A DNA stretch of 64,000 nucleotides from positions 604,899-668,898 of the forward strand of contig CAWJPR010000009.1 in NCBI GenBank assembly GCA_963844815.1. The letters run 5' to 3'. Source of the DNA: an uncultured Chloroflexia bacterium (GTDB taxonomy: Bacteria; Chloroflexota; Anaerolineae; Fen-1058). Shown piece by piece: positions 1,658-15,628 of this stretch. Position numbers and translations under genes: made by a program. The notes beneath the pieces are model-generated. The model made no database searches, was not told the origin of the DNA, and worked only from the letters and a program-made list of their open reading frames with translations. Numbering within the stretch: the first letter of the stretch is position 1; each line of letters starts with the position of its first letter.

Positions 1658-1680
1658 GTTTGGTCAACGTACCGTGTTTA

Positions 1681-1689
1681 TGCTATAGT
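1681..1689 (+). promoter_or_regulatory. Extended -10-like element TGCTATAGT upstream of module 1
   Basis: TGCTATAGT ends 10 nt before the A1 ATG at 1700, with TTGGTC 18 nt upstream. Related TGCTATATT and TGCTATAAC occur before modules 2 and 3. Confidence 0.35.
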
Positions 1690-1699
1690 ATGCAGCACT

Positions 1700-2995
1700 A
1701 TGAAAAAGCGTCGACGGCCCTCGGCAGGGCGATTCATCATTATCGTCCTGTTGGTCCTGCTCACTCTCTACGGCCTTTTCATCGGTCCCTTGCGCGCGCT
1801 GACAAACGATATCGTGTTGGGCGGGCTGCTCAACCTGGCCATTGCCTTCGCCATCATGGCGGTGTTTTTCTACGTGACGCTGTGGCTGGCCGGGCCGCAC
1901 GTGCTGCCGGTGAACCCGCGTGACCGGCATGAGAATGCAGCCGCGCGCAGCCTGCTGCGCCGCTTTGCCACGGGAGGCACTGTGGCCATGGCCGTGGTGC
2001 GTGATGGCGCGGTAGAGCCCGGCCCCCACGGCGAGTCGCGCGAGCAGATCGGGGGCTACGGTGTCATCGATGTGGACAGCACCAGCGTCGTGGATCTGCA
2101 CACCGCTGTTGGCCCCAGCCGCATCAAAGGCACCGGCCTGGTCTTCCCGCACGAATCGGAGCACCTGGCTAACATCGTCGATTTGAGAGTTCAGGTCCGT
2201 TCGCAGGAATTTGAATACATGACCCGCGACGGCATTCCCCTCAAGGCGCGCCTGTCGATGCGCTTCCAGATCGATCAGGCCAACTTTAACAAGAATCTGC
2301 ACGCGCACGATCCCAAGATCCCGTTGCCCGCGCCCATCAGCTGGTCGATGCGTCCGATCGCGCGCGCCCTGGCAAATCTGCAGGTCGTCGACGGCGGCGG
2401 CCCTGTGACAAGATGGAGCGATCTCCCGCTGCTGTATGCCAACGGCATGCTGCGCCCTGTCATCTCCGAGTACCGCCTCGACGACCTGCTGTGGCCGGCG
2501 GAACCCGCGCGCGATCCACGCAAAGAAATCCGCGAACAGATCTCCGCCCGGCTGAAGCCGGTCTTAATGCAGCAAGGCGTCAAGATGCTCGGCCTCGGCA
2601 TCGGCCTGTTCCTGCCACAGGGCTTTGACGCCGACAAAGCTTTCGATCCAGAGAAGCCAGTGCTGGACGATGTCACGGCCCAGCGCATCAAGGCCTGGAG
2701 GGCCGAGTGGGAAAGCCGCCGATTCAAGCTGAACGCCGGGGCGCAGGCCGAGGCCGATCGGCAACTCGAAAGCGCTCGATCGCTGGCTCGCTTAGAGAGT
2801 CTCCGGAGTTTAATACAGGCTCTGGAGGAAGATCTGCCGCCAAGCGGCAATCAAGATCAAATAACTCAGCAGTTTTGGGAAATCGTTAGAAACATGACGG
2901 ACCTTTCCGACACACGCACCTTGCTGGAAGAAGAAAGGTTGCGCTCTCTCACAAAGTCGCAACAGGCGGGCGAGCTGCCGCCATCGTCTGGTTGA
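1700..2995 (+). CDS. Module 1 gene A1: membrane-anchored SPFH/band-7-like protein with C-terminal coiled coil
   Basis: ATG at 1700 (MKKRRRPSAGRFIIIVLLVLLTLYGLF) followed by two hydrophobic helices. SPFH-like core: GVIDVDSTSVVDLHTAVGPSRIKGTGLVF...IVDLRVQVRSQEFEYMTRDGIPLKARLSMRFQI. The tail is Ala/Glu/Arg-rich and helical. The upstream part of track ORF 1148-2995 is antisense to rumA and was discarded. Confidence 0.7.
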   Translation: MKKRRRPSAGRFIIIVLLVLLTLYGLFIGPLRALTNDIVLGGLLNLAIAFAIMAVFFYVTLWLAGPHVLPVNPRDRHENAAARSLLRRFATGGTVAMAVVRDGAVEPGPHGESREQIGGYGVIDVDSTSVVDLHTAVGPSRIKGTGLVFPHESEHLANIVDLRVQVRSQEFEYMTRDGIPLKARLSMRFQIDQANFNKNLHAHDPKIPLPAPISWSMRPIARALANLQVVDGGGPVTRWSDLPLLYANGMLRPVISEYRLDDLLWPAEPARDPRKEIREQISARLKPVLMQQGVKMLGLGIGLFLPQGFDADKAFDPEKPVLDDVTAQRIKAWRAEWESRRFKLNAGAQAEADRQLESARSLARLESLRSLIQALEEDLPPSGNQDQITQQFWEIVRNMTDLSDTRTLLEEERLRSLTKSQQAGELPPSSG

Positions 2996-4860
2996 TTAAG
3001 CCGTCTCTTATGGACTTTCATCCGCGCTTAAAAGATCTGATCTCAACACTGGCCTACTCGCTGAGCCACGACGAGCAAGTGCGCGCTATGGGCCGGCTGC
3101 TCCTCGTCGTGACGGCCGTCATCGCCATCGGATTCGCCGGCGGCCTGATCGTGCAGGGCATCACGCCGCCTTCCGAACGCTACGTGGAACGCGAACCGGG
3201 CAAGGAGTGCATTTATAACGCCGCTTCAGCTGAAGCCGGGGCTCTCGCGGCGCAACCGGAAGGCGGCCAGCCTCCCTCGCCCGCGCTAAATATCATGGCG
3301 CCGCCGGGCGCCGAGGTTTTCGCGCAGTGGTTCATTCGCAATACCAGCACGTGCGCCTGGGACGCGGCCGTGCAGTTCCGCTTGATTGATGATGCCCGGG
3401 TGCAGGTGTTGACCGATACGCTGTCCGTCCCGCCGTATCAGATTCCCAATAACACTCTGCCCAGCATCTCCCCTGACGGCGTCCTGGCGCCGGTCGTGCC
3501 GATGATCGCGCCGTCCAGCCCCGGTTCCTATGTGACCCGGTGGCGCCTGTTCGCGTCCGATGGCGTTCACTGGTTCGGCCCGGAATTCACCTTCACCATC
3601 GACGTCGCCACCGGCATTGAAGGGGTCGTGCCCGCCGGCCGCAAGCTGCTTTTCGATTGGTGGTTCGTCATTCCCGCCCTGATCGGCATCGTCATCGCGC
3701 TGATTCGCGCCGGCGCCTTTGTGGCGCAGATGTACAGTCTCAAGTCACTCTGGCATGGCTTTACTTTTGCAGTGAATACGACGCTGGGTCTCGCGCTGAG
3801 CAGTGGATCAATTGCCGTGCGTCACGGTGATTACGAAGGCCAGATTACGGACGATCACGAAGTCCTGTTGAAGATCGGCGGACCGGGCGTGCTGTCGATC
3901 AAAGATCACACCGCCGTCCTGACCGAACGCGGCGCGCGTTACTCGCGCGTGCTCGGCCCGGAAGATCACACCCTGATGCCGTTTGAGCGCATTCGCGCCA
4001 TCACCGATCTGCGCACACAGAGTTTTGAAAGTGTGGAAACGAGCGTGACCAGGGACGGCATTCCCGTGCGCGCCAAGGTGGGCGCCATGTTCAGATTCAT
4101 GAAGCGCATGCCGGATGAGCCGGCTTCCTCCCCGCAGCATCCGCGCTTCCTGAGCGTTTTGAGCCACTATGTGAGGCGCACGCCGCCCGGCTCGGTGACG
4201 GAGCCGCCCGTTTCACCGGAAGCGCTGCGCATGGCGTGCTATGAAGTGCCCCGCCCTCTCAGTCCCCTCACCTGGCATCAAGCGGCTTTCGGCGCGGCGA
4301 AAGGCGAAGTAGCCGAAGAACTGAGCCGCCGCACGCTCGACGAGGTATTCGCGCCTGACGATCCCAGCCGCAGCCCGCGCCGCGAGATTGCCGCCCAGCT
4401 CGACAGTGCCGGCCGGGCAGCACTTGCCGCGCGCGGCATCGAGCTGGTCGACAGCACCTTTGGCAATCTGCAGCTGCCGCGCGAAGTGACGGCGCAGCGC
4501 ACCAGCATGTGGCAGGCCGGTTTGGAAAATGAATCGACTATTTCCCGCGCAACCAGCGAAGCGGACAGCCTGCTGCAAATTCAGACGGTGTACGCAGAAG
4601 CGCATGCCGATGTCATCAAAGCCATTGCACAGGCGGCCCGCATGATGGACGAAAATAACTACCTTTCACAACCCGTCATCAAAGCTCTGGCCCATGTCAT
4701 TGAGCGCACTTTGCAGCGCGAGGCGGCGCTGCCTTTGTTATCGGTTGACACACGCAAAGAAGTAGAGCAGTCATTAGAGCAGTTGCGCCAGTCCATGCTA
4801 TCGTCGGGAAGTCAGGCCAATGGTGTCGTTGAGTATTCCGCGCCTGTTACGCTTGATTGA
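2992..4860 (+). CDS. Module 1 gene A2: TM protein with NBR1-like Ig ectodomain fused to a second SPFH-like domain
   Basis: TTG start overlaps the A1 stop (TTGA); an ATG at 3010 is an alternative. TM helix LLLVVTAVIAIGFAGGLIV. NBR1-type pattern FAQWFIRNTSTCAWDAAVQFRL...SSPGSYVTRWRLFASDGVHWFGPEFTFTIDV. Further TM helices (WWFVIPALIGIVIALIRAGAFVA). SPFH-like core LLKIGGPGVLSIKDHTAVLTERGARYSRVLGPEDHTLMPFERIRAITDLRTQSFESVETSVTRDGIPVRAKVGAMFRF. Confidence 0.7.
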   Translation: MIKPSLMDFHPRLKDLISTLAYSLSHDEQVRAMGRLLLVVTAVIAIGFAGGLIVQGITPPSERYVEREPGKECIYNAASAEAGALAAQPEGGQPPSPALNIMAPPGAEVFAQWFIRNTSTCAWDAAVQFRLIDDARVQVLTDTLSVPPYQIPNNTLPSISPDGVLAPVVPMIAPSSPGSYVTRWRLFASDGVHWFGPEFTFTIDVATGIEGVVPAGRKLLFDWWFVIPALIGIVIALIRAGAFVAQMYSLKSLWHGFTFAVNTTLGLALSSGSIAVRHGDYEGQITDDHEVLLKIGGPGVLSIKDHTAVLTERGARYSRVLGPEDHTLMPFERIRAITDLRTQSFESVETSVTRDGIPVRAKVGAMFRFMKRMPDEPASSPQHPRFLSVLSHYVRRTPPGSVTEPPVSPEALRMACYEVPRPLSPLTWHQAAFGAAKGEVAEELSRRTLDEVFAPDDPSRSPRREIAAQLDSAGRAALAARGIELVDSTFGNLQLPREVTAQRTSMWQAGLENESTISRATSEADSLLQIQTVYAEAHADVIKAIAQAARMMDENNYLSQPVIKALAHVIERTLQREAALPLLSVDTRKEVEQSLEQLRQSMLSSGSQANGVVEYSAPVTLD

Positions 4861-5962
4861 TACCAGCCGTGTTGACTCAGAAATCATCGCGCGTTGTAGA
4901 GAGTCACTCCACTGGCTGCGCCGCGGCGATACGTATAAAGCTCTGGATTTGGCCCAGACTTCCGTGCGCCTCGCCGCGCGCCTGCAGAGCATTGATAAGC
5001 GTGACATTACGGATGAATCTTTGCGCCGCACTTCGACCGGCGTCGCACTACTCTTCCTGGCCTACTTGCGCCACCTCTCCAATGAACCCTTCGAGCGCAC
5101 TCGCGCACTGCTGACCGGTCAGACGGCATTGACCTGGCTGGCGCGCGACGATTACCATTATGCGCTGGCCGCGTTGGTGCTGGCCAATATCGCGTGGGAA
5201 GAAGACCAGTTTGAGGCGGCTTCTGCTAAATTTCAAGCGGCTCTGCCGCGTCTCGACAAGCTCATCGCTTTATGGCGCCGCAAAAACGATCAACTGACCG
5301 CCGACCGATACCTCCATCTCCGGCAATCCGTCCAACAGGCCATGCGCCGTGTGCCGCTGGCGGAGCGGTCGGCCGCGCCATCTTTGCCGCCGGCCCTTGA
5401 AGAAAGCGCCGAGCGTGACTGGCTTGCTCAGATCAAGCTGCCCGCCGAGCTCGTCTGGACCAACATCGATCTGGCCGGCCTGCAGCTGCTGCCGGCGCGC
5501 AGCGCCGAGCGCAACGTGACCATCCTGTCCGAACACGTCAAGATGCTGCCGGACAAGCTGGACTATCTTGAGATTGAACGGCTTTCAATCGGGGGGCAGG
5601 ATTATCAGATTCTGGCTCCTCCGCCGGCGCAGGGCAAGTTCCGAATGCAGACGAGCCAGCCTTATTACGCCTTTCAGTTCGCGGCGCGCGGGCAACCGCA
5701 GCCGGGCCAGCCTCAATTTGTGCTGGTTCGCCCGCACGATCGAGAGCTGCCGGCCGAGTGGCCGATCGTGATTCTGATCCCCGCCGAGCAGCGCGCGCTG
5801 CTGGTGCGCAGCCAGCCGCCGGCTTCGCCATTAATCATTGGCGAACGGGTATGGTCTATTCAAGACGGCACAGAGGCCAAAACTTACAGTGAAGACGATG
5901 TGCAGATTGCCGGCGCGGTCGTCGCCCTGTTGGCGCCGTTGGAATCATCAGCAACCGAGTGA
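4820..5962 (+). CDS. Module 1 gene A3: cytoplasmic protein with helical (TPR-like) N-half, Pro-rich linker and conserved beta-rich C-domain
   Basis: 380-aa ORF overlapping the A2 end by 41 nt. The N-terminus LSIPRLLRLIDTSRV aligns with B3 FSIPDLLSLLQVDRQ. The C-domain (IERLSIGGQDYQILAPP...FVLVRPHDRE...LIIGERVWSI...VQIAGAVVALL) is shared with 9599-10729 and occurs twice in 12539-14017. Confidence 0.55.
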   Translation: MVSLSIPRLLRLIDTSRVDSEIIARCRESLHWLRRGDTYKALDLAQTSVRLAARLQSIDKRDITDESLRRTSTGVALLFLAYLRHLSNEPFERTRALLTGQTALTWLARDDYHYALAALVLANIAWEEDQFEAASAKFQAALPRLDKLIALWRRKNDQLTADRYLHLRQSVQQAMRRVPLAERSAAPSLPPALEESAERDWLAQIKLPAELVWTNIDLAGLQLLPARSAERNVTILSEHVKMLPDKLDYLEIERLSIGGQDYQILAPPPAQGKFRMQTSQPYYAFQFAARGQPQPGQPQFVLVRPHDRELPAEWPIVILIPAEQRALLVRSQPPASPLIIGERVWSIQDGTEAKTYSEDDVQIAGAVVALLAPLESSATE

Positions 5963-5997
5963 AGGTTGTTGAGACTTACCTGCTGCTCCCCCTGAGA

Positions 5998-6351
5998 TCA
6001 CGCTGAACTTTCGCCGTGACCTGATGGCGCATGTTTTTCAGCGCCATCTCGCGCCGGGCGATCGTGCGCTACGTAGTCGATATGCTGCCACTGGCATCCG
6101 CCACACGCAGGAGAGTCGAAGCCAAAGAGCGGGCAGCGCGGCTTGATCTGATCGGGCGACGGTTCGATCACTTCAACCGTGCGCCCACGAGCAAAGCGTG
6201 TTTGATTCTCCTCAACGACGATACGCACGAGCTCACCCGGCAAGCCGCTCCCCTCGAAGATCGCCTTACCCTCGTGGCGGCCCAGTGCCTCGCTGCCAAA
6301 GGTCATGGCCTCCACACGAAGATTGCGCTCCGTGGCAGGAGACGGGAGCAC
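5998..6351 (-). pseudogene. Truncated duplicate of the rumA 5' end (TRAM domain and Cys cluster only)
   Basis: RVEAMTFGSEALGRHEGKAIFEGSGLPGELVRIVVEENQTRFARGRTVEVIEPSPDQIKPRCPLFGFDSPACGGCQWQHIDYVA aligns with RumA residues from 449-1657. By hand count 59 of 84 residues are identical. Homology stops near 6055 and the MTase domain is absent. Confidence 0.8.
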
Positions 6352-6448
6352 AGCAGGAAGGGGATTCCTCAGGCTTTGATTTACAATCTTCGTGGAATTC
6401 GGCAGGGATATAGGGTATTTTCGTCAGTAGATCAATGCTTCACCTTTA

Positions 6449-6457
6449 TGCTATATT
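6449..6457 (+). promoter_or_regulatory. Extended -10-like element TGCTATATT upstream of module 2
   Basis: Context cctttaTGCTATATTggtag is similar to gtgtttaTGCTATAGTatgc before module 1. It lies 39 nt upstream of the B1 ATG. Confidence 0.35.
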
Positions 6458-6495
6458 GGTAGTCACATTCTGCTGTTTTCGCGACATCTCTCCGC

Positions 6496-7779
6496 ATGAA
6501 AAAGACCTCACGTCCGCGACCTTCTACCCGATACCTCGGTCTGGCCATTGGGTTTATCATGGTCGTGCTGTCTGCCTGTGCCGTCTGGAATACCAGCTCT
6601 TTTGATTTATGGTGGACGTTGGGCACGTTCGCTGCTGCAGGCCTGATAACCTTTGCCGTCATTGCGCCTAAACTGCTGCCGATCGAGGATGCGGCAGCAG
6701 AGCACCCCGAGGCTTATCGTGTGTTCGGAAGCTCATCCTTGGGCAGGATTCGTTCATCGCACTGGTCCGTGACGGCCAGGTTGTGGCACACTCGAAACCG
6801 AATTCGAATCGGGGCGTCATCGTCACGGACAGCACCAGTGTTGTCGCGCTGCGCACTAGCACGGGCATTTCGCGTGTGGCGGGCGCTCACCTTGACGAAC
6901 AGGGCCAATCTCGTTCGGGTGTCATTTTTACCCTGCCAGAGGAAGAGATCGACGCGGTCATCGATCTGCGGCCACAGTTGCGCCGCAAGCCGACAACTGC
7001 CCAGACTCGCGACGGCATTACGGTCGAGGTAGTGATAGCCGCCGTCTTTGCACCGAAATACACACGGGCACGCAAGCTAAATGAGTTACATCAGTTGAAA
7101 CATCGACCACGTACGCAGATGCGCTACCCATCCCCGTTTTCCTGGCGTCGCGCAAGTATTATCCAGGCCCTCAGCACACGCCGTGTCGAACTCGATGGTG
7201 AACATGCCAAGAAGACTGATTGGTATGAGCGGATCATGGAGATTGCCGCTCCGCGGCTTAGAGATCTCATCAGCGAATACACCGTGGACGAATTAACGGC
7301 GTGGACGACTACGGACAAGTTCCTCAAGCATCCACGCTTCGTCATTCGTGATGAACTGGTCAAGCTCGTAAGGCGGGAACTAGATGCTGATGATGCGACG
7401 CACCACCCTACAGGCATCGACGTCCGCGCTATGTCACTCGACTCTCCGAAACCGCCGGATGGCGTCATCGAACGTCGCATTCAAGCATGGACGGAGGAGT
7501 GGCACAAGAAGGAATCTGACATCTTCGCGCGAGCCGACGCCGAAGCGATCCGCACGCGCGAACTGGCGCGCGCCCAGGTTCAAGGCGAGATGACCGCGCG
7601 CATCAACGATATTTTACAGGAAGCTCGAGTCCTCCAATGCCGCCCGAGGTGATTTGGTCATGCTGCGCTTTTTGGAAGCCCTAGAAAAGATGTCCAAAGA
7701 TCCTACGACGCGAACGCTCTTGACCTTTGATGCATTGAAGATGCTGAAGCGACTGCGCGAGCTACTGACGAGCAATTAG
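6496..7779 (+). CDS. Module 2 gene B1: SPFH-like membrane protein (paralogue of A1), read in three frames
   Basis: The TM N-terminus (6496 frame, LGLAIGFIMVVLSACAV...) switches near 6715-6735 to the 6783 frame. That frame reads FIALVRDGQVVAH..GVIVTDSTSVVALRTSTGISRV...VIDLRPQLRRKPTTAQTRDGITVEVV. It switches again near 7615-7650 to a frame ending LRFLEALEKMSKDPTTRTLLTFDALKMLKRLRELLTSN with a stop at 7777-7779. Each segment aligns with A1. Confidence 0.65.
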
Positions 7780-7791
7780 TCAGGAGCATGA

Positions 7792-8373
7792 ATGAGCAAG
7801 AGCGATAACACGTCGCCCAAACAGCCCGCCGGCACATTGCACGATTGGGCCAGGCATAATCCGCACCAGATAGGTTTTCTGCGGCTGGTGTTGTTCGCTG
7901 CCGGACTGGCGGCAGCGGGCATACTCGGTGCCATGTGGGCTAATCCAGCACCGCCAGAAGTTTATAATGAGACAGAGCAATGTACCTATGCCGCCGCTAG
8001 ATATGATCCACCGGCCGAGGCGTTGTATGCCGTGGTGAGTCAGACATTTCGAATCGACTGGACGATCCAGAACATCGGTTCCTGCCATGTGTGGGGTAAA
8101 GATATTCTATTCGTCCGCCGCAACGACGATATCCTTGGCCAAACAAATGCTTACCCGGCTCCTTCGCAACCAATCATCACGACCGGCGATAATCCCACAC
8201 CGATCATCGTGGCCTACGTGACGACGGTGATGACTGCGCCGCCGACCAGCGGTGTGTACGTGACCGAGTGGTACATGCGCGCCCCGAATGGCAGGCGCTT
8301 TGGCCCGATCATGCAGCAGCGAGTGCAGGTCGTGGAAGCCAACGCGCCCATCCCGCCAGCCTATTCCCAATGA
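7792..8373 (+). CDS. Module 2 gene B2a: TM + NBR1-like Ig ectodomain (N-terminal half of an A2-type protein)
   Basis: AGGAG RBS at 7782-7786. TM helix FLRLVLFAAGLAAAGILGAMW. NBR1-type pattern FRIDWTIQNIGSCHVWGKDILF...SGVYVTEWYMRAPNGRRFGPIM. The ORF ends where A2 continues uninterrupted into its TM/SPFH half. Confidence 0.65.
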   Translation: MSKSDNTSPKQPAGTLHDWARHNPHQIGFLRLVLFAAGLAAAGILGAMWANPAPPEVYNETEQCTYAAARYDPPAEALYAVVSQTFRIDWTIQNIGSCHVWGKDILFVRRNDDILGQTNAYPAPSQPIITTGDNPTPIIVAYVTTVMTAPPTSGVYVTEWYMRAPNGRRFGPIMQQRVQVVEANAPIPPAYSQ

Positions 8374-8395
8374 ACCACCTACTTCGCCAGGCACG

Positions 8396-9577
8396 GTGCT
8401 GCTCGTCGGCCTGCTATCGTTCATTTACCATATGTTGCCGGCACTGCTGGGCATTATCTTTATCCTGTGGCGCGCCAATGCGTTTTTGGTCAAAGTGTTC
8501 CACCTGCCTTCGGCAGCCAATGGCTGGCCGCACGTCATAGGGATGATGTTTGGCTACATTTCGGCGGAGTTATCGGTCCATCACGGCAAAGTCGACCCAG
8601 AGGAATCCAGCAAGGCCGCGCAAATCATCGGGGGACCGGCTTTCCTCACCGTGGGAGAAAGCAATGCCGTTTTGTTGGAACATGGCGCAGGGTTCTCGCG
8701 CATCGTCGGAACCGGAGTCTATCAGCTGCGCCCGCACGAACAAGTGCGCGGTGTGGTGGATCTACAGACGCACTATCGTAAATTTCCCCACAATATTCTG
8801 ACGAAAGACGGTATTCCGATCAAGATAGAAGTCGATCTCACCTTCCGCGTAACGGAGAAAGATCTCCCGGAAGACTCGCCTTTGGTTCCGCCACCATTAG
8901 GCCCGCTTAATCGGCTGCGCCGGCGGCTGGGCCTGCTTGTGCGGCATGACGTCCTGGAAACCACGCAGCCCCATCGCTTCTCGCGTGAAACGATCCGGCG
9001 CCTCGTCTACGAAACGGCGATCATGTCGCCCGATCAAACGCCCGATTGGGCAACCATGTTCTATAACGCACACTCCGGCTATATCGTCGATCAGGTTGCC
9101 GACTGCCGCCTTGACGAGATCAGTGCGCCCGAGGATATACAAGCTCACTCCCGCGCCGAGATCGCCCGCAAAGGACTGGAAGATGCGCGCGCCGCCGCCT
9201 CGCCGCTGGGCATTGAGATTTTGGACATGACGTTGGGCGTGATCGAGCCGCAGGACCGGTATCAATATATTACTACCCAGATGATTACTAACTGGAAGAT
9301 CGAATGGGAGCGCCGCGCCAGGCTTCTGGAAGCTCAGGCTGAGGCGAAACGCACTCAGTCTTTGGAAGAAGCCCGCGCCGAAGCGCAGGCCAATATGATT
9401 CAAGCGCTCACCGAAGGCTACCGCATCGCGATGGGCGATGGTCATGATCCCCAGGTCTCAAGAGATGTCATCGCACTGCGCTTTATTGACACACTCGAAA
9501 CGCTGCTCGCCCGACAAACGCCAGGCACGCAGATTGATCTAGCGGCGCTGTTGCACCTGCTACGCGGAGAGTCTTAG
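8396..9577 (+). CDS. Module 2 gene B2b: TM + SPFH-like domain (C-terminal half of an A2-type protein)
   Basis: GTG at 8396 (an ATG at 8432 is an alternative) gives VLLVGLLSFIYHMLPALLGIIFILW. SPFH core: IIGGPAFLTVGESNAVLLEHGAGFSRIVGTGVYQLRPHEQVRGVVDLQTHYRKFPHNILTKDGIPIKIEVDLTFRV. The tail is a coiled coil. The track ORF start at 8288 overlaps B2a and was discarded. Confidence 0.65.
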   Translation: MLLVGLLSFIYHMLPALLGIIFILWRANAFLVKVFHLPSAANGWPHVIGMMFGYISAELSVHHGKVDPEESSKAAQIIGGPAFLTVGESNAVLLEHGAGFSRIVGTGVYQLRPHEQVRGVVDLQTHYRKFPHNILTKDGIPIKIEVDLTFRVTEKDLPEDSPLVPPPLGPLNRLRRRLGLLVRHDVLETTQPHRFSRETIRRLVYETAIMSPDQTPDWATMFYNAHSGYIVDQVADCRLDEISAPEDIQAHSRAEIARKGLEDARAAASPLGIEILDMTLGVIEPQDRYQYITTQMITNWKIEWERRARLLEAQAEAKRTQSLEEARAEAQANMIQALTEGYRIAMGDGHDPQVSRDVIALRFIDTLETLLARQTPGTQIDLAALLHLLRGES

Positions 9578-9598
9578 TCTTTCACAGGGAGGCCGATC

Positions 9599-10729
9599 GT
9601 GCCGGACAAATTTTCCATCCCCGATCTATTGAGCCTGTTGCAAGTCGATCGTCAAAACGCTGCTATCAGAATGGCCGTGGAGTCTGAACGCTTATGCCGA
9701 CGGCAACGCTACGAAGACTCCATCACAGTTGCCAACAATGCAGTGCTAATTGCGGGCCATAAGTCGGAACTACAAGGTGTTGCGCTACTATATTTAAGTA
9801 CGGCTCGATTTGCCACCGCAATGCCGGATGAACGCCAAAAGTCGATACGCGATTGCACGCGGGCTATTAGAGCATTAGCTGTCCACTCTCATAACCGTGC
9901 TATCGCACAAATCGTTAGAGCAAAATTCGAATTAGAGTCCGATGGTATGCACAATAAAGTCAGCGCTATGAAACATTTAAATGATGCGACAAAAACATTG
10001 CAGGCACTGATCGCTGACTCATACGAACATCAACGATTAAACGAAACAAAACTATATCAGGATCTGCTAGTCTTCGTAAAAGACAAAACCGAGCAACTGC
10101 ATTCTTCGCTAACCGAAATCGAACTATCAGACCGCACGCTGCCCACTCAGCCAATTCCAGCATCATCAATACCGGTCGAACAACCCGTAGTCAAACCGAC
10201 TCAGCCACAAGAGGTTCCGCCACAACAAACCGCCAGCTGGTCTCAACGTGAGAAAATTCAAGGCAAATTGCCGGTTCCGACCCGCCTGTTATGGCCAACC
10301 CCTGCGCCAACAAAAGTCGAACTATTCCCAATAGGGAATGGCGCAAGACTTGATTACATTGATGCCAGTCGACTTTCCATTGATGGCCAGCCTTTTTCAC
10401 TAGAACCAGTATATCCGGTTTCCAGCCATGATAAGGCAGTTCGGCTATTCGCTGGACAGCAGTACCTGGCCTATCACATTGACGGTAGTCCAAACCAGCG
10501 CGTGCTAGTTCGCAGCCAAGATCGTCCTGATCAAGTGCGGCAGTTTGTCGTCGTGTCTGATCCGACAGAGCCCAGAGTCTGGATTGATGATGCTGAATCC
10601 GATCCTCTTTTTTCCAATATTCATATTCTAGGTATTAACAGATCTTGGAGTACCGAGGATGCACCTGAAGTAAAGCCTCATATTATTGGTATAGTTGAAG
10701 CACTAATGACAGCCGTTAAGCTTGCCTAA
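9599..10729 (+). CDS. Module 2 gene B3: paralogue of A3 (helical N-half + conserved beta-rich C-domain)
   Basis: GTG start; 376 aa. C-domain: LDYIDASRLSIDGQPFSLEPV...QRVLVRSQDRPDQVRQFVVVSDPTEPRVWIDDAE...NIHILGINRSWS...KPHIIGIVEALMTAV. Confidence 0.55.
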   Translation: MPDKFSIPDLLSLLQVDRQNAAIRMAVESERLCRRQRYEDSITVANNAVLIAGHKSELQGVALLYLSTARFATAMPDERQKSIRDCTRAIRALAVHSHNRAIAQIVRAKFELESDGMHNKVSAMKHLNDATKTLQALIADSYEHQRLNETKLYQDLLVFVKDKTEQLHSSLTEIELSDRTLPTQPIPASSIPVEQPVVKPTQPQEVPPQQTASWSQREKIQGKLPVPTRLLWPTPAPTKVELFPIGNGARLDYIDASRLSIDGQPFSLEPVYPVSSHDKAVRLFAGQQYLAYHIDGSPNQRVLVRSQDRPDQVRQFVVVSDPTEPRVWIDDAESDPLFSNIHILGINRSWSTEDAPEVKPHIIGIVEALMTAVKLA

Positions 10730-10752
10730 ACCTTTTAGATCCGTGAGGGGTG

Positions 10753-10761
10753 TGCTATAAC
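10753..10761 (+). promoter_or_regulatory. Extended -10-like element TGCTATAAC upstream of module 3
   Basis: Third occurrence of the TGCTATA core, 18 nt upstream of the ATG at 10780. Confidence 0.3.
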
Positions 10762-10779
10762 ACCGAGGGCTGGTGAACA

Positions 10780-11820
10780 ATGTCCAAAAGACCTCAAGCT
10801 TCCCAAAGAATCAAAATACGCAACAAATCGCGCATTATTTATCGCGATTTGGAGGGCAAGTTCATTTCCAAAGCTCAATACGAAGAATTGAGGAAACGTT
10901 TGCAAGGGGATCTGGCTCAAACACCTCAGGGAACCACTGAGCCCAGCAGTATCACTGAATCAAACGCCGCCGCAAAGCGCAAAGTGTCACCAAGTTCAGA
11001 AGCATCTTTTACCAATACCGTCGAAGATACAACTTCCAAACGTACTCGACCTAAAGAATCGACAGGTACTGAAGCGCTTCATACCGCTGGCAATATGCGC
11101 AGTGGTGGCACCGACATTAAAGGCCAAGATGTCAAGATAGGAGGCGATGCCGTTGGCCGCGACAAAAAGTCTGTCCACAAAGGAGACATCCACCATTTTA
11201 GAAATCTGCTTGTTAATACCAAGCCGAACGATTTCTCCGAGAAGGTACGTGCAAAGTTCTTGCGATTACTAGGCGATAATGCTGTCCGACGCGAGATGCA
11301 GAAGGACATAGATAGTGAACGGCAAACTGGCCGGAGGTTGTCTTTCAATAGCAGCAATCTGAACGATCTCCCTTTGAACAAAATGGTTTTGCATGATGCC
11401 GATTTTGTGGGCGCGAAACTACGCAACTGTAAGTTGACACAAGCGGACCTGCGAAATGCTGACTTTCGGGATGCTGATCTAACGCAGGCCCAGCTACAGG
11501 GTGCAATCTTAGACGGGGCGAACCTGAGTAACGCAATTATGATCGATGCCGACCTCAGCGATGCAACGTTGAGGGGAACAAGACTGCACGGAACAAATCT
11601 CGAAGACAGTATCTTAAATCAGTCTGACTTGAGTGAAGCAGTGGCCTCTAGCGCGACGTCATTTGATCGACTAAAATGGCAAAAGCGAAATTGTTTAGGG
11701 CAAATTTGCAGTCTGTCAATCTTCGAGCAGCGGAGCTTTACGATGCTAACTTACAGGGAGCCGATCTTCAGCATGCCGATCTCAGCGGGGTGCACGCCCA
11801 AGGCGCAGACTTTCGCATGA
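10780..11820 (+). CDS. Module 3 gene C1, part a: protein with short N-terminal YRDLEGKFISKAQYEEL motif, low-complexity linker and pentapeptide repeats; frame lost near 11670
   Basis: Pentapeptide repeats ADFVGAKLRNCKLTQADLRNADFRDADLTQAQLQGAILDGANLSNAIMIDADLSDATLRGTRLHGTNLEDSILNQSDLSEA. The last ~50 codons (WQKRNCLGQICSLSIF...) are non-repeat text that overlaps the next ORF, in which the repeats continue. Confidence 0.6.
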   Translation: MSKRPQASQRIKIRNKSRIIYRDLEGKFISKAQYEELRKRLQGDLAQTPQGTTEPSSITESNAAAKRKVSPSSEASFTNTVEDTTSKRTRPKESTGTEALHTAGNMRSGGTDIKGQDVKIGGDAVGRDKKSVHKGDIHHFRNLLVNTKPNDFSEKVRAKFLRLLGDNAVRREMQKDIDSERQTGRRLSFNSSNLNDLPLNKMVLHDADFVGAKLRNCKLTQADLRNADFRDADLTQAQLQGAILDGANLSNAIMIDADLSDATLRGTRLHGTNLEDSILNQSDLSEAVASSATSFDRLKWQKRNCLGQICSLSIFEQRSFTMLTYREPIFSMPISAGCTPKAQTFA

Positions 11821-12527
11821 CTAACCTTCAAGGAGCACTCCTCACTGAGGCCGTACTTAGCAGAGCCAGTTTTGACGGGGCTGATTTGACTGGTGCCGAT
11901 TTGTGTGGAGCAAAATTCGACAACTGTCGTCTCCAAAACGCAAGATTGCATAAAACACGACGTGATTCTAAGACCATATTCGAGCCAGATTCTCTCCGCG
12001 TTTGGAATGCAGTCAACCCTGGCTTGACCGGCCAGCCTGACCCATCGGTTGCGTTAGGCTCATTTGAGCATGCATTCCTACATCAAGTCAATTTCTCCGG
12101 ATTTGATCTCACACGCAGTAATTTCAATCAGACAGATTTGACGCTTGCCAACTTAAGTGTTGCAAAACTGACGGGAGTCAACTTAATTCAAGTCAATCTT
12201 GATCATGGCATCTTGCAAGGTGCACACTTGCAGTATGCAAAACTAAACAACGCATATTTAGGCCATGCTAAGCTAAGGCGTGCTCACTTATATGGTGCCA
12301 ACCTCCAAAATGCTGACCTGCGACATGCAGATCTGCGCGGATCCGATCTGCGAATTGCTGATCTAAGTGGTGCCGATCTTAGGAATGCTGACTTTATCGA
12401 TGCCAATTTGGCTGGAGCCGACCTCGCGCTTGCAAATTTAACTGGAGCAACAATAAGCAGCCGACAACTGGCAGACGCACGTAACCTCACTGGCGCGACA
12501 ATGCCCGACGGTTCGATTCATCCTTAG
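11676..12527 (+). CDS. Module 3 gene C1, part b: pentapeptide-repeat protein (probable continuation of 10780 ORF after a frameshift)
   Basis: AKLFRANLQSVNLRAAELYDANLQGADLQHADLSGVHAQGADFRMTNLQGALL...LYGANLQNADLRHADLRGSDLRIADLSGADLRNADFIDANLAGADLALANLTGA. A TGA lies 3 codons upstream of the ATG in this frame. The ORF overlaps the previous ORF by 145 nt. Confidence 0.7.
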   Translation: MAKAKLFRANLQSVNLRAAELYDANLQGADLQHADLSGVHAQGADFRMTNLQGALLTEAVLSRASFDGADLTGADLCGAKFDNCRLQNARLHKTRRDSKTIFEPDSLRVWNAVNPGLTGQPDPSVALGSFEHAFLHQVNFSGFDLTRSNFNQTDLTLANLSVAKLTGVNLIQVNLDHGILQGAHLQYAKLNNAYLGHAKLRRAHLYGANLQNADLRHADLRGSDLRIADLSGADLRNADFIDANLAGADLALANLTGATISSRQLADARNLTGATMPDGSIHP

Positions 12528-12538
12528 GTAGGTGACTC

Positions 12539-14017
12539 ATGGCTCCACGTTCCTCTCGCCGATCAACGGCACGCACAACCAAGCAAAGCACACTCAGCCA
12601 AAAACCCACACGTACGTTTACTACAACCGCAGTGACCAGGAACTTAGGTCAGTCGCCTAGCGATCTAAAGCAATTAATTGAAAATCGACGAGAATTCCCC
12701 CATTCGGCTTCATTAGCCAGTCTGGTACGCTTAGACTGGCCCCGTCGCCAAGAACTATTTCCGCATGGACCCGGGGTGACCAAACCGGAACGCTTCGGCT
12801 TCAAAGGACGAGCCTATGATGTAGAATCCCTTGAACCGGGCGCCACAGGCAACAAGTTTGTCTATTTGTATCCTGAAAAGCGCTACTATGTGGTGCCGAT
12901 CCATGAAGAAGGGCAGTCGCCCGACGCACCACATCGCTTTCTGTTGGTGAGAAGGCGGGAAGTCCGAGAAGGGCCCGGCCCGCACATCGGTGTCATCGAA
13001 CCGCCTGAGCCGTCAGGCGAACCTTTTGCGCATCTTCATATCATCGCTGGCGAAGATGACAGCGCAATCGCTGAACCTGTACCACATACGGCTGGCATTG
13101 TCGAAGCGATCTTGACAGCCACAGACTCATCGCTTTCGACGACTCCACAAGCCAAGCAACCGGCAGTTGCGTCTCAGGTATTTAGCGAACCAGTTCCACA
13201 GAGCGAACAGCTGATCATGCAGCGTCTGGTGTGGCCTCCCACTGAGCCGCTGCTGGTCATCGACGCACCGGCCGGTATGAAGGGCTTAATGCCCGATTTC
13301 TTGAGTATCCGGCAGTTGTCCGTGCAAAACCGCCTTTACGACGTCAAGCCACTTGTTGGAAACGAAGCAGTCCAGTTGCGTTTGCGTCAGAAATATTGGA
13401 TTACCCCACTGGAAGATGCACCACATGGCGAACTGGCGTTAGTGCGTGAGCAATCACAGCCCGATCAAACCGAGCAATTCGTAGTTGTTAGCGAACCGAC
13501 ACAGCGCAGAGTCTGGATCGACAAAGCGGAGGCTCTCAAAGATTCCGGGCATCTCCACATCATTGGGGCAGAACGCGAATGGACCACCCACGATTTCTCG
13601 CTTGCGCATTTGGACATGACCGAACCACGCATTATCGGCATCATCGAAGCCGTTTTAGTTCCAGAGCCCGAAGCGATCTCTCCTCAAATCACAACTGAGC
13701 CAGTTCTACCTGAGCCCCAAATCATCAAACTGGCAAGCGGCAAAACGCGTTGGATGTACCGCAACTTTGATGGACAATTCATCTCCAAAGCAAGGTATGA
13801 AGCACTAAAGGGCAAAAGGCTCGGCCAGCCGCCCAAACCACGCAAGCGTGCTGCGTCCTTCAGTATCCCGCCTTCACCGATAGAACCTACACCTGCATAT
13901 CCCAATCGGATCGAAATGATTGCGCCTGATCTATTGCGCATGACCATCGAGTCACCATCTCTGATTCCGGTGCGTGAGTTCCTGGAACGATATACCTCGC
14001 AGACTGGAATCTATTGA
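12539..14017 (+). CDS. Module 3 gene C2: protein with two copies of the A3/B3-type beta-rich domain and a C-terminal YRNFDGQFISKARYEAL motif
   Basis: Copy 1: RAYDVESLEPG...RFLLVRRREV...HLHIIAGEDD...HTAGIVEAILTAT. Copy 2: RLYDVKPLVGN...LALVREQSQPDQTEQFVVVSEPTQRRVWIDKAE...HLHIIGAEREW...PRIIGIIEAVLVP. The tail KTRWMYRNFDGQFISKARYEALKGKRLG resembles the C1 N-terminus. Confidence 0.55.
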   Translation: MAPRSSRRSTARTTKQSTLSQKPTRTFTTTAVTRNLGQSPSDLKQLIENRREFPHSASLASLVRLDWPRRQELFPHGPGVTKPERFGFKGRAYDVESLEPGATGNKFVYLYPEKRYYVVPIHEEGQSPDAPHRFLLVRRREVREGPGPHIGVIEPPEPSGEPFAHLHIIAGEDDSAIAEPVPHTAGIVEAILTATDSSLSTTPQAKQPAVASQVFSEPVPQSEQLIMQRLVWPPTEPLLVIDAPAGMKGLMPDFLSIRQLSVQNRLYDVKPLVGNEAVQLRLRQKYWITPLEDAPHGELALVREQSQPDQTEQFVVVSEPTQRRVWIDKAEALKDSGHLHIIGAEREWTTHDFSLAHLDMTEPRIIGIIEAVLVPEPEAISPQITTEPVLPEPQIIKLASGKTRWMYRNFDGQFISKARYEALKGKRLGQPPKPRKRAASFSIPPSPIEPTPAYPNRIEMIAPDLLRMTIESPSLIPVREFLERYTSQTGIY

Positions 14018-14689
14018 CGCGCTTTACTTATTCTTTTCATTCATTGCAACTGGCGAAACAGAAGCGGTTAGAGAACTAACTCTTGAATTGGCGGAAGATA
14101 AAAGTGCCTTCGCAGTAATTAACTCGGTTTTGCAGAAGTATGAATTGAACCGAGGCGTTAAGCCGCTTCAGTTAGTCCGTTTTCATTATGGCTCCGATGT
14201 TGTAACTGATCTGCTCGGAATCGGTAAGATCGTTGAAGTTATCGTCTCATTCTGGGAAAGATTGAGGAAGGGTAAGTTCGAGGAAGATCTGCTCAAGGAG
14301 GAAATCCTTAAGAAGCGTGCTGAACGCCAGAAAGAAGAAGAATCACTCAAGCGAGATATCGAACAGAAGGACCAAGATGCTGAACTCAAAGACGAGGAGG
14401 TCCTTATTAGACGTGCTGAACGCAAGAAAATCGAGAACCAGAATGTTCGTGACTTTTTTGCAGCTGTGAGAGAAGGTCGAGAGTGGGCCTGTCGGATGAA
14501 GAAATCGGACGAGCATACGAATTCTTAGAGTCCACAGCTATGCCGCTCATGATCTCCTCGCCCCGTAAGCAGCACCAACCTCTTGCTTTGCCACCAAGGA
14601 AAGGGCCTGCAAGCGAACCCAAAGTTTTAACCGCCCCAAAATCCAAGTCTACCGACCGCAAGGGGAAAGCAAAACGCCAGAGACGCTGA
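13974..14689 (+). CDS. Module 3 gene C3: Lys/Glu-rich coiled-coil protein, read in two frames; start uncertain
   Basis: ORF 13974-14528 reads ...KGKFEEDLLKEEILKKRAERQKEEESLKRDIEQKDQDAELKDEEVLIRRAERKKIENQNVRDFFAAVREGRE. ORF 14483-14689 (GLSDEEIGRAYEFLEST...KGKAKRQRR) overlaps it, and the likely frame change is at 14455-14485. No recognisable family. Confidence 0.4.
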
Positions 14690-14731
14690 TTATTACCGTG
14701 GGAAGATCGAGTCTCCATAAGGAGAAATATC

Positions 14732-15628
14732 ATGCGTGTTAAGTTGTTTCTCTCCCAATCCGTCCGCGCCGCGCTCGCCGATCGTCAGCCCATCGTCGCG
14801 CTCGAATCGACGTTGATCACGCACGGCCTGCCGCGCCCGGTCAATCTCGAGGTGGCGCTGCGGCTGGAAGCCGTGGTGCGCGAGAACGGCGCCACGCCCG
14901 CGACGATCGCGATCCTCGACGGCGAGTTGTACGCCGGGCTTGAGCCCGATCAACTCGAGCGGCTGGCAAACGCCGACGATGTCCGCAAAGTCAGCCGCCG
15001 CGATCTGCCCATCGTCGTCGCGCAGAAAGGCCACGGCGCGACCACCGTCGCCGCCACGATGTGGGTCGCCGCGCAGGCCGGCATCCAGGTCTTTGCCACG
15101 GGCGGCATCGGCGGCGTGCATCGAGGGCAGCCGTTCGACGTGTCGGCGGATTTGCCCGAACTCGCGCAGACGCCCGTCGTCGTCGTGTGCGCGGGCGCAA
15201 AGGCCATCCTCGATCTGCCGCTCACGCTCGAATGGCTGGAGACGCACGGCGTGCCCGTGCTGGGCTTCGGCACGGAGACTTTCCCCGCGTTCTACTCGCG
15301 CAGCAGCGGCCTGCCCGTCGATGCGCGCTGCGACACGGCGGAAGACGCCGCGCACATCATCCGCGCCAAGTTCGAGCTGGGCCTGCCGGGCGGGGTGCTG
15401 ATCGGCGTGCCGGTGCCGGAAGAGTACGCCGTGGCGCCCGAAGACATCGAACCGGCGATTCAGCAGGCCCTGAAAATGGCCGAGGCCGAAAACATACGCG
15501 GCAAGGCCATCTCCCCGTTTTTGCTGAAGCACGTCAGCGAATTGACCGGGGGCGAGAGCCTGAAGGCCAACATCGCCCTGCTGGAAAACAATGCCCGCGT
15601 TGCCGCGCAGATTGCCAGAGCGTTGTAA
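14732..15628 (+). CDS. psuG: Pseudouridine-5'-phosphate glycosidase
   Basis: 298 aa: VALESTLITHGLPRPVNLEVA...VFATGGIGGVHRG...VVVVCAGAKAILDLPLTLEWLETHGVPVLGF, matching the PsuG/IndA family throughout. AAGGAG RBS. Confidence 0.9.
   Translation: MRVKLFLSQSVRAALADRQPIVALESTLITHGLPRPVNLEVALRLEAVVRENGATPATIAILDGELYAGLEPDQLERLANADDVRKVSRRDLPIVVAQKGHGATTVAATMWVAAQAGIQVFATGGIGGVHRGQPFDVSADLPELAQTPVVVVCAGAKAILDLPLTLEWLETHGVPVLGFGTETFPAFYSRSSGLPVDARCDTAEDAAHIIRAKFELGLPGGVLIGVPVPEEYAVAPEDIEPAIQQALKMAEAENIRGKAISPFLLKHVSELTGGESLKANIALLENNARVAAQIARAL

Follow-up and report, generated by a model that had tools for sequence, protein, structure and literature searches.

SPFH cassettes with an NBR1-like Ig domain and a TPR/S24-like adaptor in a chromosomal slot of Anaerolineae-like Chloroflexota

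The locus and its borders

The window, that is, the whole stretch of 64,000 nucleotides that was analysed, carries a co-directional gene train, as the preliminary description had stated; on the + strand it spans positions 1700 to 14528. It consists of two paralogous cassettes, an intact one of type A and one of type B, each built on a triad of an SPFH gene, an NBR1-SPFH gene and an adaptor gene (Table 1). Two cassettes take the place of the three modules proposed before: the pentapeptide-repeat gene, formerly assigned to a third module, belongs to cassette B as its fourth gene, and C3 and C4 are accessory. The membrane system encoded here is confined to Anaerolineae-like (filamentous) Chloroflexota.

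The cassettes occupy a slot with conserved borders. On its left lies an RNA methyltransferase gene, divergently transcribed from A1, and a gene of this type adjoins the cassette in L001, L002, L004, L008, L011, L017 and L019, which makes it the conserved left border. The conserved right border is psuG: either this gene or the pair psuK-psuG follows the cassette, or the island containing it, in L002, L004, L005, L008, L011, L013, L017, L019, L021 and L022, and a PfkB gene alone is visible at the right border of L016. Nearly always, the triad of the related loci is found just upstream of psuG.

Two remnants occupy the 533 nt that separate A3 from B1. One of them is the beginning of an AAA-type ATPase gene, with 74% identity to residues 3-25 of a 365-aa protein of L001. 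A gene of this kind follows A3 in relatives and is intact in L001, L006, L007, L009 and L015. The other is a fragment of a methyltransferase gene, discussed below. Outside the cassettes, radA is frameshifted at a C-run, and two further genes, one InhA-like and one STAND-WD40, are split.

Table 1. Features of the cassette slot (positions in the window)
Feature	Position	Strand	Basis
TRAM/U5-type RNA methyltransferase, left flank	449..1657	-	Pfam tRNA_U5-meth_tr and TRAM
A1, SPFH protein	1700..2995	+	Pfam Band_7, 29.6 bits (cutoff 23.6)
A2, NBR1-SPFH protein	3010..4860	+	Pfam N_BRCA1_IG, Band_7
A3, adaptor	4820..5962	+	AF2 model, Foldseek TPR matches, fold matches of C-domain
Relic, first ~25 codons of AAA-type ATPase gene	5973..6041	+	tblastn
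Methyltransferase-gene fragment, 98 codons (codons ~16-106 of the gene)	6058..6351	-	Nucleotide and amino acid identity
B1, B-type SPFH protein, three frames	6496..7779	+	Band_7 6e-7; piecewise tblastn to L004, L005, L017
B2, B-type NBR1-SPFH protein, one frameshift	7792..9577	+	N_BRCA1_IG 6.8e-8 (first piece), Band_7 9.4e-9 (second piece)
B3, intact B-type adaptor (TPR half and S24-like domain)	9599..10729	+	25% identity to A3
Pentapeptide-repeat protein, one frameshift	10780..12527	+	Pfam PF00805
C3, two S24-like C-domains, without TPR half	12539..14017	+	BLAST to B3
C4, small protein, K/E/R-rich coiled-coil tail	13974..14528	+	Composition
psuG (pseudouridine-5'-phosphate glycosidase), right flank	14732..15628	+	Pfam Indigoidine_A 2.9e-127

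The SPFH pair of cassette A

The SPFH and NBR1-like assignments made from the sequence alone hold under profile searches, with PF01145 (SPFH/Band 7) above its gathering cutoff in A1, A2, B1 and B2, and the Ig model above its cutoff in A2 and B2. A profile of the SPFH cores matches PH stomatin, 3bk6, at 1.2e-5, and also matches human stomatin and HflC. Besides the curated profile, these proteins share with the SPFH superfamily a predicted N-terminal membrane anchor and a C-terminal helical, putatively oligomerising region, seen in the alignment as a conserved tail rich in A/E/R/Q.

A1 has the two TM helices first attributed to it, which hydropathy and charge place as a hairpin at residues 13-31 and 38-56 behind a basic N-terminus; for its SPFH core and helical tail the predicted location is the cytoplasm. 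In A2, the NBR1-type Ig domain (N_BRCA1_IG, PF16158; 48.6 bits, 1.3e-12, cutoff 28) and the SPFH core (Band_7, 38.3 bits, 1.9e-9) are both supported by Pfam, whereas only two strong TM helices are found, at residues 36-54 and 226-244, rather than the three formerly counted. The protein thus consists of TM1, a segment of ~170 aa with the NBR1/FW Ig domain, TM2, the SPFH core and a helical tail, a layout in which the Ig segment is predicted to be external and the SPFH core cytoplasmic. The Ig segment contains four W residues, as the NBR1 FW domain does, and gives a weak phmmer match to the NBR1 structure 4ole. The open reading frame of A2 (2992-4860) opens at a TTG at 2992; the ATG at 3010 is the likely start, judging from the 96% identical, gapless short-read contig L014, where the gene begins at the equivalent position.

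The adaptor and its LexA/S24-like domain

The layout first read from the sequence of A3 recurs in its AF2 model, with a helical half (residues 6-176), a disordered Pro-rich linker (180-199) and a beta-rich C-domain (209-373). In Foldseek, the helical half matches TPR proteins and resembles the TPRs of Hsp70/Hsp90 co-chaperones. LexA/CI proteins are recurrent top matches of the C-domain in both PDB and BFVD, these fold matches being weak (E 0.05-0.3, TM <=0.39). The Peptidase_S24 model of Pfam has no match in A3, B3 or C3; the outlier P0113 is the one member of the family to pass it (33.2 bits, cutoff 23.3), and it retains GSSMEP...IVKIARG. The peptidase residues are gone in almost all members. 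This weak but recurrent fold likeness, together with the loss of the Ser-Lys dyad, suggests that the C-domain is derived from peptidase S24 and is not an active member. According to these models, A3 would be a cytoplasmic adaptor that joins a TPR-like half to a degenerate LexA/S24-like beta domain. It would share its fold class with the S24 domain of LexA, lambda CI and UmuD, and differs from them in that it has lost the Ser loop and has another residue in place of the Lys, in B3 as well as in A3, and in that A3 has no DNA-binding domain, the S24-like domain being joined instead to a TPR half and an SPFH system.

Cassette B and its accessory proteins

Homologues of A1, A2 and A3 do recur in the same order as B1, B2 and B3 (25-31% identity), as was claimed for a second module; the pieces of B1 and B2 had, however, been silently joined across frameshifts, which lie near 6740 and 7625 in B1 and near 8365 in B2. 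The Ig domain of B2 scores 33.5 bits with PF16158 (cutoff 28). B3 is 57% identical to P0053 and 39% to the B3 of L004. The pentapeptide gene is also frameshifted, near 11667, and its two pieces, joined in the same way before, belong to PF00805, the family of tandem A(D/N)LXX repeats, at 2.8e-35 and 2.8e-59. B1, B2 and the pentapeptide gene are each a single ORF in L004, L005, L017 and L019. In view of the frameshifts, the B copy of the window may be dead.

The supposed third module did contain what had been read in it, namely pentapeptide repeats, an A3-type domain present twice in C3 and the K/E/R-rich C4, but it is no separate module. The pentapeptide gene comes next after the adaptor gene in the window, L004 and L005, and one inserted NACHT gene beyond it in L019; in L017, the repeats are fused to the adaptor. 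It thus completes the B-type cassette as a fourth gene, and C3 and C4, made of cassette parts, are accessory proteins. The S24-like C-domains of C3 lie at about 12728-13123 and 13223-13657, and C3 shows 71% identity to the C-domain of P0081; in P0123, an A3 C-domain is fused to a C4-like region (39% identity). A motif, Y[RK][DN]..G.F[IVL][ST]...[YF], occurs only in C3 (at about 13703-13810) and, N-terminally, in unfused pentapeptide proteins (at about 10786-10930 in the window) and is absent from the fusions, a pattern of presence and absence that is the sole source of the docking role proposed for it.

Fusions and neighbours in related loci

The expected co-occurrence of the three gene types is borne out, the order SPFH, NBR1-SPFH and A3-type gene being kept in each of the ~15 related loci of Anaerolineae whose sequence suffices to show it. 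In L022, A1 and A2 are fused into one protein of 1233 aa that also has a PNP_UDP_1 (PNP nucleosidase-type) domain. Members of the A3 family occur as fusions with A2, pentapeptide repeats, EAD7, GrpE or a coiled coil. In P0120/L016, an A2-type protein carries the A3 C-domain at its C-terminus, and this fusion, along with the predicted topology, fits the dedicated cytoplasmic partner postulated before. P0100 and P0119 fuse B3 to pentapeptide repeats; four family members carry EAD7, and one of these lies within a triad (L021); three have a GrpE domain at the C-terminus. A cognate second EAD7 was not found in L021 or the window.

The neighbours of the triad in relatives include STAND, NACHT and AAA_16 ATPases, TCAD9 proteins, PIN and BrnT/A genes. 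The cassettes of the window contain no enzymatic effector, EAD, STAND gene or core NTPase. As for the novelty claimed for the triad, no description of it was found in PADLOC, NCBIfam or the literature searched, and PADLOC-DB 2.0 gave no significant match for the proteins of the window or the intact B-type proteins of L004.

Origin and state of cassette B

Cassette B is 46-56% identical to the B-type cassettes of other lineages, although the flanking genes of those genomes are more distant. Together with its 25-31% identity to A, this argues for an old type, one that occupies this slot elsewhere too and that was probably acquired, with its accessory genes, by recombination rather than copied locally. 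The left end of the incoming block is marked by the methyltransferase-gene fragment, which shows 78% nucleotide identity (6065-6321 against 1347-1603) and 68% amino acid identity to the left-flank gene. The GC content of cassette B is 0.45-0.58 against 0.61, with steps at about 9600 and about 14600; the low-GC block begins at B3 (0.477). The junction of A3, relic and methyltransferase fragment is common to the more distant L008, so that the rearrangement is old. The A-type orthologues, in turn, are about as conserved as the flank (in L001, methyltransferase 74%, A1 72%, A2 73% and A3 68%), and the earlier picture of a multiplied, fast-diverging locus therefore does not hold.

A local tandem triplication of one module, with fast divergence under conflict, would account for the identical gene order of A and B and for the duplicated piece of the upstream methyltransferase gene before B1. 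It is very improbable, considering that B is nearer to the B-types of genomes with more distant flanking genes than to A, that the methyltransferase fragment is still 78% identical though non-coding while the A and B proteins are ~27% identical, that the GC content breaks, that module 3 is not a module, and that L017 has an intact tandem of A-like and B-type cassettes. A serious possibility, which we would place somewhat below an even chance, is that acquired cassette B, perhaps with C3 and C4, is a decaying remnant and only A is functional, or, as a variant, that B is intact and its frameshifts arose as errors of assembly. Four frameshifts fall in ~6 kb of this GC-poor foreign DNA, most of them away from long homopolymers, versus none in 4.3 kb of A, which is gapless against an independent short-read contig; the damage noted above in radA, at a C-run, and in the InhA-like and STAND-WD40 genes agrees with the variant. 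Against decay, B3, C3 and C4 are intact, and B1 and B2 align full length to intact homologues even though the rearrangement is old.

Proposed working of the system

The arrangement of a putative SPFH cage, a predicted external Ig domain and an adaptor with add-ons suggests that binding outside may be coupled to partner assembly in the cytoplasm. Proteins of the A1 and A2 types would come together as a ring or cage at the cytoplasmic side of the membrane and display the Ig domains outside. The adaptor would dock by its S24-like domain close to the C-terminal end of this assembly, and its TPR half, with exchangeable add-ons (pentapeptide beta-helix, EAD7, GrpE, coiled coil), would recruit partner or effector proteins. 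In this way, whatever is bound outside would bring partners together in the cytoplasm, with conflict, immunity or envelope surveillance as the most likely setting. To this reading as a whole, an SPFH platform that faces the cytoplasm, bears an external Ig domain and works with a modular adaptor in such a setting, we give only slightly less than an even chance, and a conflict role of the cassette is likely. The EAD7 fusions, the PNP_UDP_1 fusion of L022 and the STAND/NACHT/TCAD9 neighbours point toward conflict; the fixed chromosomal slot and an A-type divergence like that of ordinary flanking genes, i.e., vertical and housekeeping-like, point away from it, as do the lack of a PADLOC match and of any enzymatic effector, EAD or STAND gene in the cassettes of the window. 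The GrpE fusions and the TPR fold are equally compatible with a chaperone or proteostasis role.

Such a role is central to a rather unlikely alternative, a housekeeping scaffold for membrane microdomains or proteostasis. This would be a counterpart of stomatin-NfeD or HflK/C-FtsH specific to the lineage, with an SPFH cage and a (pseudo)protease/TPR partner that hold or triage membrane proteins, possibly passing them to DnaK. The fixed slot upstream of psuG, the ordinary conservation of the A-type orthologues, the three C-terminal GrpE domains, the co-chaperone-like TPR half, the classical pairing of SPFH proteins with Ser-Lys proteases (NfeD) or FtsH (PMC2636767) and the lack of PADLOC matches would all agree with it. 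The EAD7 and PNP_UDP_1 fusions and the recurrent STAND/NACHT/TCAD9 neighbours would be unexpected for such a scaffold; two deeply diverged types exchanged between lineages, the existence of double cassettes, the loss of peptidase residues in almost all members and the lack of a linked protease gene also speak against it.

The boldest form of the platform reading, which we consider unlikely, is that of a platform for immunity or conflict that acts across the envelope of filamentous Chloroflexota. Here, an FW/Ig ring on the SPFH cage would sense an invader, a neighbour cell or envelope damage, and the inactivated LexA-like adaptor would recruit exchangeable effectors (a PNP nucleosidase-type domain, STAND NTPases via EAD7, pentapeptide beta-helices), with types A and B being swapped between lineages at a dedicated slot. 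If true, this would be a new kind of such platform.

Comparison with known systems

The logic of SPFH operon partners has been set out before (PMC2636767, PMC4208085). Two adjacent SPFH paralogues, for which a hetero-oligomeric cage is expected, are also found in HflK/HflC-FtsH, and HflC is a weak profile match to the SPFH cores. However, HflK and HflC have a single N-terminal TM helix and an SPFH domain outside the cytoplasm, whereas A1 and A2 have two TM helices and a predicted cytoplasmic SPFH core; no ftsH gene is present in any of the loci examined, and the HflK/HflC models of NCBIfam have no match in the cassette proteins. The HflK/HflC analogy drawn at first is abandoned on these three grounds, and identity with that system is rejected.

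Stomatin-NfeD (e.g., Pyrococcus PH1511/PH1510) likewise combines a membrane-anchored SPFH protein, here the closest solved one by profile, with a partner of its own, in which a Ser-Lys-protease-type domain is joined by a binding domain of beta-barrel form. NfeD is a membrane S49/ClpP-like protein with an OB fold, whereas A3 would be a cytoplasmic TPR protein of LexA/S24 type (clan SF) that has lost the peptidase residues; moreover, the cassette has two SPFH paralogues, one with an external Ig domain. No NfeD is among the Pfam matches of the cassette or neighbouring proteins. An operon-paired SPFH duplication is also known from Chloroflexi, as SPFH11a/b, adjacent paired genes in 4/8 genomes then available (Hinderhofer et al. 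2009); set beside A1/A2 by its description only, the account consulted mentions neither an NBR1 domain nor a third partner.

Finally, the searched text of Kaur, Burroughs, Iyer and Aravind 2020 (PMC7159879) does not describe the triad. It presents ternary, EAD-coupled systems as built around a core NTPase, be it MoxR-vWA, a GTPase or STAND, to which paired EADs link effectors, EAD7 being one that recruits them. Contrary to these, the cassette has no MoxR-vWA pair or GTPase core, and the window no EAD. The EAD/STAND conflict systems of multicellular bacteria do, as far as that text goes, combine a constant module with variable partners as seen here, and also use Band7-like, TPR and pentapeptide 'superstructure-forming' domains; EAD7 itself occurs on A3-family members, and TCAD9, nSTAND1 and NACHT genes are neighbours of the triad in relatives.

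Gene layout and cassette A

The genes considered here form one co-directional + strand train, as the preliminary description had it, flanked by a divergent TRAM/U5-type RNA methyltransferase gene (MT) and by psuG. Cassette A, comprising an SPFH protein (A1), an NBR1-SPFH protein (A2) and an adaptor (A3), is intact. The homologous counterparts B1, B2 and B3 follow in the same order, and after B3 come a pentapeptide-repeat gene, C3 and C4. As described earlier, C3 carries the C-terminal domain of A3 twice, and C4 is a coiled-coil protein, rich in K, E and R. The SPFH and NBR1-like assignments also hold, both A1 and A2 exceeding the Pfam cutoffs, whereas A2 has two strongly predicted TM helices, not the three proposed. 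A3 has no match in Pfam, NCBIfam or PADLOC.

Coordinates of the gene set, its flanks and the contents of the A3-B1 gap
Feature	Position	Strand	Remarks
MT (TRAM/U5 RNA methyltransferase)	449-1657	-	left flank, transcribed divergently from the gene set
Co-directional gene set	1700-14528	+	between the divergent MT gene and psuG
A1	1700-2995	+	Band_7 above Pfam cutoff
A2	ORF 2992-4860, likely start ATG 3010	+	N_BRCA1_IG (48.6 bits) and Band_7, both above cutoff
A3	4820-5962	+	AF2 model, Foldseek TPR-type matches
Relic of ATPase gene	5973-6041		first ~25 codons of the gene following A3 in relatives; in the 533-nt A3-B1 gap
Methyltransferase gene fragment	6058-6351	-	98 codons; 78% nucleotide and 68% protein identity to the resident MT
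psuG	14732-15628		right flank and right border of the gene set

The A2 stop in contig L014 (96% identity) lies at the equivalent of window position 4815; the window ORF reaches 4860 because of a substitution, not an indel, and the region 4813-4860 thus adds ~15 residues that overlap the start of A3. Promoter and terminator scans gave nothing above chance, and the window contains no tRNA and no Rfam match. The psuG-PDZ intergenic region holds a 59-nt direct repeat in two copies (15634-15692 and 15778-15836, 71% identity). Further along, short tandem arrays lie between two genes at 36469-36619, GACAAGATGAAGGGAA three times and then CTTGTCCT 7.8 times, with array cores that are mutual reverse complements.

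The triad and its chromosomal slot

The triad is real, since the order SPFH, NBR1-SPFH, A3-type recurs in other genomes. Co-occurrence had been set beforehand as a refutation test, and every related locus with enough sequence keeps the order. A-type or A-like loci are L001, L002/L003, L008, L011, L015, the first cassette of L017, L021, L022 and two triads on a 42-kb JGI contig, and B-type loci are L004, L005, the second cassette of L017 and L019; L017 and the JGI contig thus carry tandem double cassettes. Homologues of A2 and A3 are few (~25 each among 5.8 billion clusters), from Thermoflexales/Anaerolineae MAGs, and a homology search with a 40-sequence alignment returned almost exclusively close A-type relatives.

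Nearly all loci have psuG or psuK-psuG as their right border; on the left stands MT in the Thermoflexales-like group and a urocanase region in L016, L021 and L022. In these last three a PfkB-family kinase gene, probably psuK, stands 5' of psuG to the right of the cassette, which is thus linked to pseudouridine-catabolism genes, perhaps by conserved synteny only, despite the differing left flank. The slot between the rRNA/tRNA methyltransferase gene and psuG is a site at which these cassettes and STAND-type genes are exchanged among Anaerolineae. Several A-type relatives (L001 12967-21812, L015 10628-20597, the JGI contig) have an island after the triad, with AAA_22-like, AAA_16, small Band_7, nSTAND1 and GAF histidine kinase genes and a TCAD9-bearing response regulator; of this island, nothing but a relic of 25 codons from the first gene is left in the window. 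L019 carries a radA gene with an intein (1317-4169; Intein_splicing, LAGLIDADG_3).

Cassette B: composition, origin and integrity

Three tandem modules had been proposed, but there are two cassettes, and the pentapeptide gene assigned to a third is the fourth gene of cassette B, since it follows B3 in L004, L005 and L019 and is fused to B3 in L017 (P0100). Directly after the B-type triad, L004 and L005 have the pentapeptide gene and then psuG; L019 has the same order, but with a low-GC (41.5%) NACHT gene inserted at 10295-13450 between B3 and the pentapeptide gene. A motif of ~35 aa (...Q.IKL..G....YRD..G.FIS...Y..L) is confined to two places, the N-terminus of pentapeptide proteins that are free and a stretch near the C-terminal end of C3; the B3-pentapeptide fusions lack it, which suggests a docking peptide made redundant by fusion.

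Cassette B appears to have been acquired by recombination, an origin to which the identity pattern, GC steps and a methyltransferase gene fragment all point. Cassette A, judged by identity, is conserved about as well as its flanks: relative to L001, MT is 74%, A1 72%, A2 73% and A3 68% identical, and relative to L002, MT is 78%, psuG 92% and A1-A3 52-59%. The B genes share 46-56% identity with the B-type cassettes of L004, L005, L017 and L019, but only 25-31% with A, even though the flanking genes of those loci are more distant from the window's (MT 48-55%). GC is 0.61-0.62 in A, 0.58 in B1/B2 and 0.45-0.53 from B3 to C4, with sharp steps at ~9600 and ~14600 and GC3 falling from ~0.73 to 0.41-0.52; in L004 and L005 the B cassette has the GC of its host. 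The 533-nt A3-B1 gap holds the ATPase relic and the methyltransferase fragment. Duplication in situ, implied by the earlier view of modules multiplied and diverging fast, is rejected on the identity pattern and GC. There is no evidence of a phage or plasmid origin. Scans with B3-like patterns, the first of metagenomes and one of viral sequences, found nothing, and tblastn with B3 against plasmids and phages gave no match. The slot has a reticulate history, because L008 has the window's A3/relic/fragment junction, although all that lay between it and psuG has since been lost there, while L015, a nearer relative, keeps the ATPase island instead.

The second module had been said to repeat the same three proteins; homology and order stand, but B1 and B2 are not intact as read. 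B1 lies in three frames, and B2 and the pentapeptide gene in two each, giving four frameshifts (~6740, ~7625, ~8365 and ~11667), and the counterparts in L004, L005, L017 and L019 are single ORFs. These may be real lesions, as cassette A aligns gaplessly with the independent short-read contig L014 (96% identity) and most B sites lie away from long homopolymers; they may also be assembly errors, given other split genes in the window: radA (~300, C-run), an InhA-like gene and an HTH-STAND-WD40 gene. The radA/sms gene at the window edge (1-456, - strand) changes frame near 298-304, at a C6-7 run, relative to L001 and L002 RadA; either this housekeeping gene is truly damaged or the assembly has introduced an indel. 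In L002 the InhA-like MAM metalloprotease gene (17423-19460, +) is whole, with 682 aa; the window copy shifts frame in its N-terminal part near 17560-17600, has a stop in frame at 18297 and runs out of frame over ~18450-18850. The gene at 54093-56207 (- strand), seemingly three overlapping ORFs, encodes an HTH(XRE)-P-loop STAND-type NTPase with pentapeptide-like and WD40-like C-terminal parts, possibly a further conflict-type gene with further frameshifts.

The adaptor and its fusions

In the AF2 model of A3 (pLDDT 73.5), eight helices, for which Foldseek gives TPR-type matches, are followed by a disordered linker and then a beta domain, in agreement with the helical and beta-rich halves described before. 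In the C-domain modelled separately (pLDDT 86.6, pTM 0.83), LexA and CI C-terminal domains recur as best matches in PDB and BFVD, although weakly (E 0.05-0.3), and an alignment of this domain found no match among Pfam and PDB sequences. The family member P0113 provides a bridge, with Pfam Peptidase_S24 at 33.2 bits (cutoff 23.3) inside the C-domain and GSSMEP...IVKIARG kept; A3, B3 and C3 have lost the Ser loop and have another residue in place of the Lys. A3 thus combines a TPR half with an inactivated LexA/S24-like domain, and an active S24 peptidase is rejected because the dyad is lost. This LexA-type autopeptidase domain is here re-employed as a non-catalytic module, in a family missing from Pfam with 92 clusters at 50% identity (profile search, 1.84 billion representatives).

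Natural fusions predict contacts among the parts. A 1233-aa protein in L022 (13849-17550) joins A1-like SPFH, A2-like NBR1-SPFH and a C-terminal nucleoside-phosphorylase-type PNP_UDP_1 domain; a PIN_3 gene and one for a pentapeptide protein are close by. An A2-type protein is fused to the A3 C-domain in L016 (P0120), and this C-domain to a C4-like coiled coil in P0123. A3 is fused to pentapeptide repeats (P0100, P0119), to GrpE (P0054, P0084, P0087) and to EAD7 (P0094, P0095, P0105, P0129; P0095 belongs to the L021 triad), a domain not found in the window.

Proposed role

A1 and A2 would form a hetero-oligomeric SPFH ring facing the cytoplasm, with the FW/Ig domains displayed outside the membrane; using its S24-like domain, A3 would dock close to the C-terminus of A2, its TPR half and add-ons bringing in partners. 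We lean towards a conflict or immunity role because of the neighbours and fusions in relatives: AAA_16, nSTAND1 and NACHT ATPases, TCAD9 response regulators, PIN, BrnT/A, EAD7 and PNP_UDP_1. In Kaur et al. 2020 (PMC7159879), EAD7 is an effector-recruiting adaptor, and Band7, TPR and pentapeptide domains are scaffold-type effectors. A housekeeping or proteostasis scaffold stays a serious rival to the conflict role, since the cassette keeps to one chromosomal slot, the A type diverges to an ordinary degree, its ties to GrpE and TPR suggest chaperones, PADLOC gives no match and the window itself holds no effector.

Comparison with known SPFH systems

SPFH scaffolds are, to our knowledge, universal, their clients and triggers being mostly unknown, and the literature searched held no description of an SPFH + NBR1 + TPR/S24 system. 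We rate the cassette as an SPFH scaffold with a protease-type operon partner, plus a new protein family and a testable architecture; it offers a compact, genetically defined case in which the binding domain is external and the cytoplasmic adaptor modular. By the positive-inside rule, the basic N-termini and TM hairpins predicted in A1 and A2 would make the two SPFH cores cytoplasmic and the Ig domain external. Neither A1 nor A2, searched as a single sequence against PDB, matched an SPFH structure; a profile of the cores was required, and its best matches are archaeal and human stomatin, then HflC. The HflK/HflC-like arrangement suggested earlier is rejected, given the opposite predicted topology, the absence of FtsH and the lack of an NCBIfam match, and the cassette also differs from stomatin-NfeD systems, having no NfeD gene. 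A1/A2 may overlap with the paired SPFH11a/b subfamily reported from Chloroflexi in PMC2636767.
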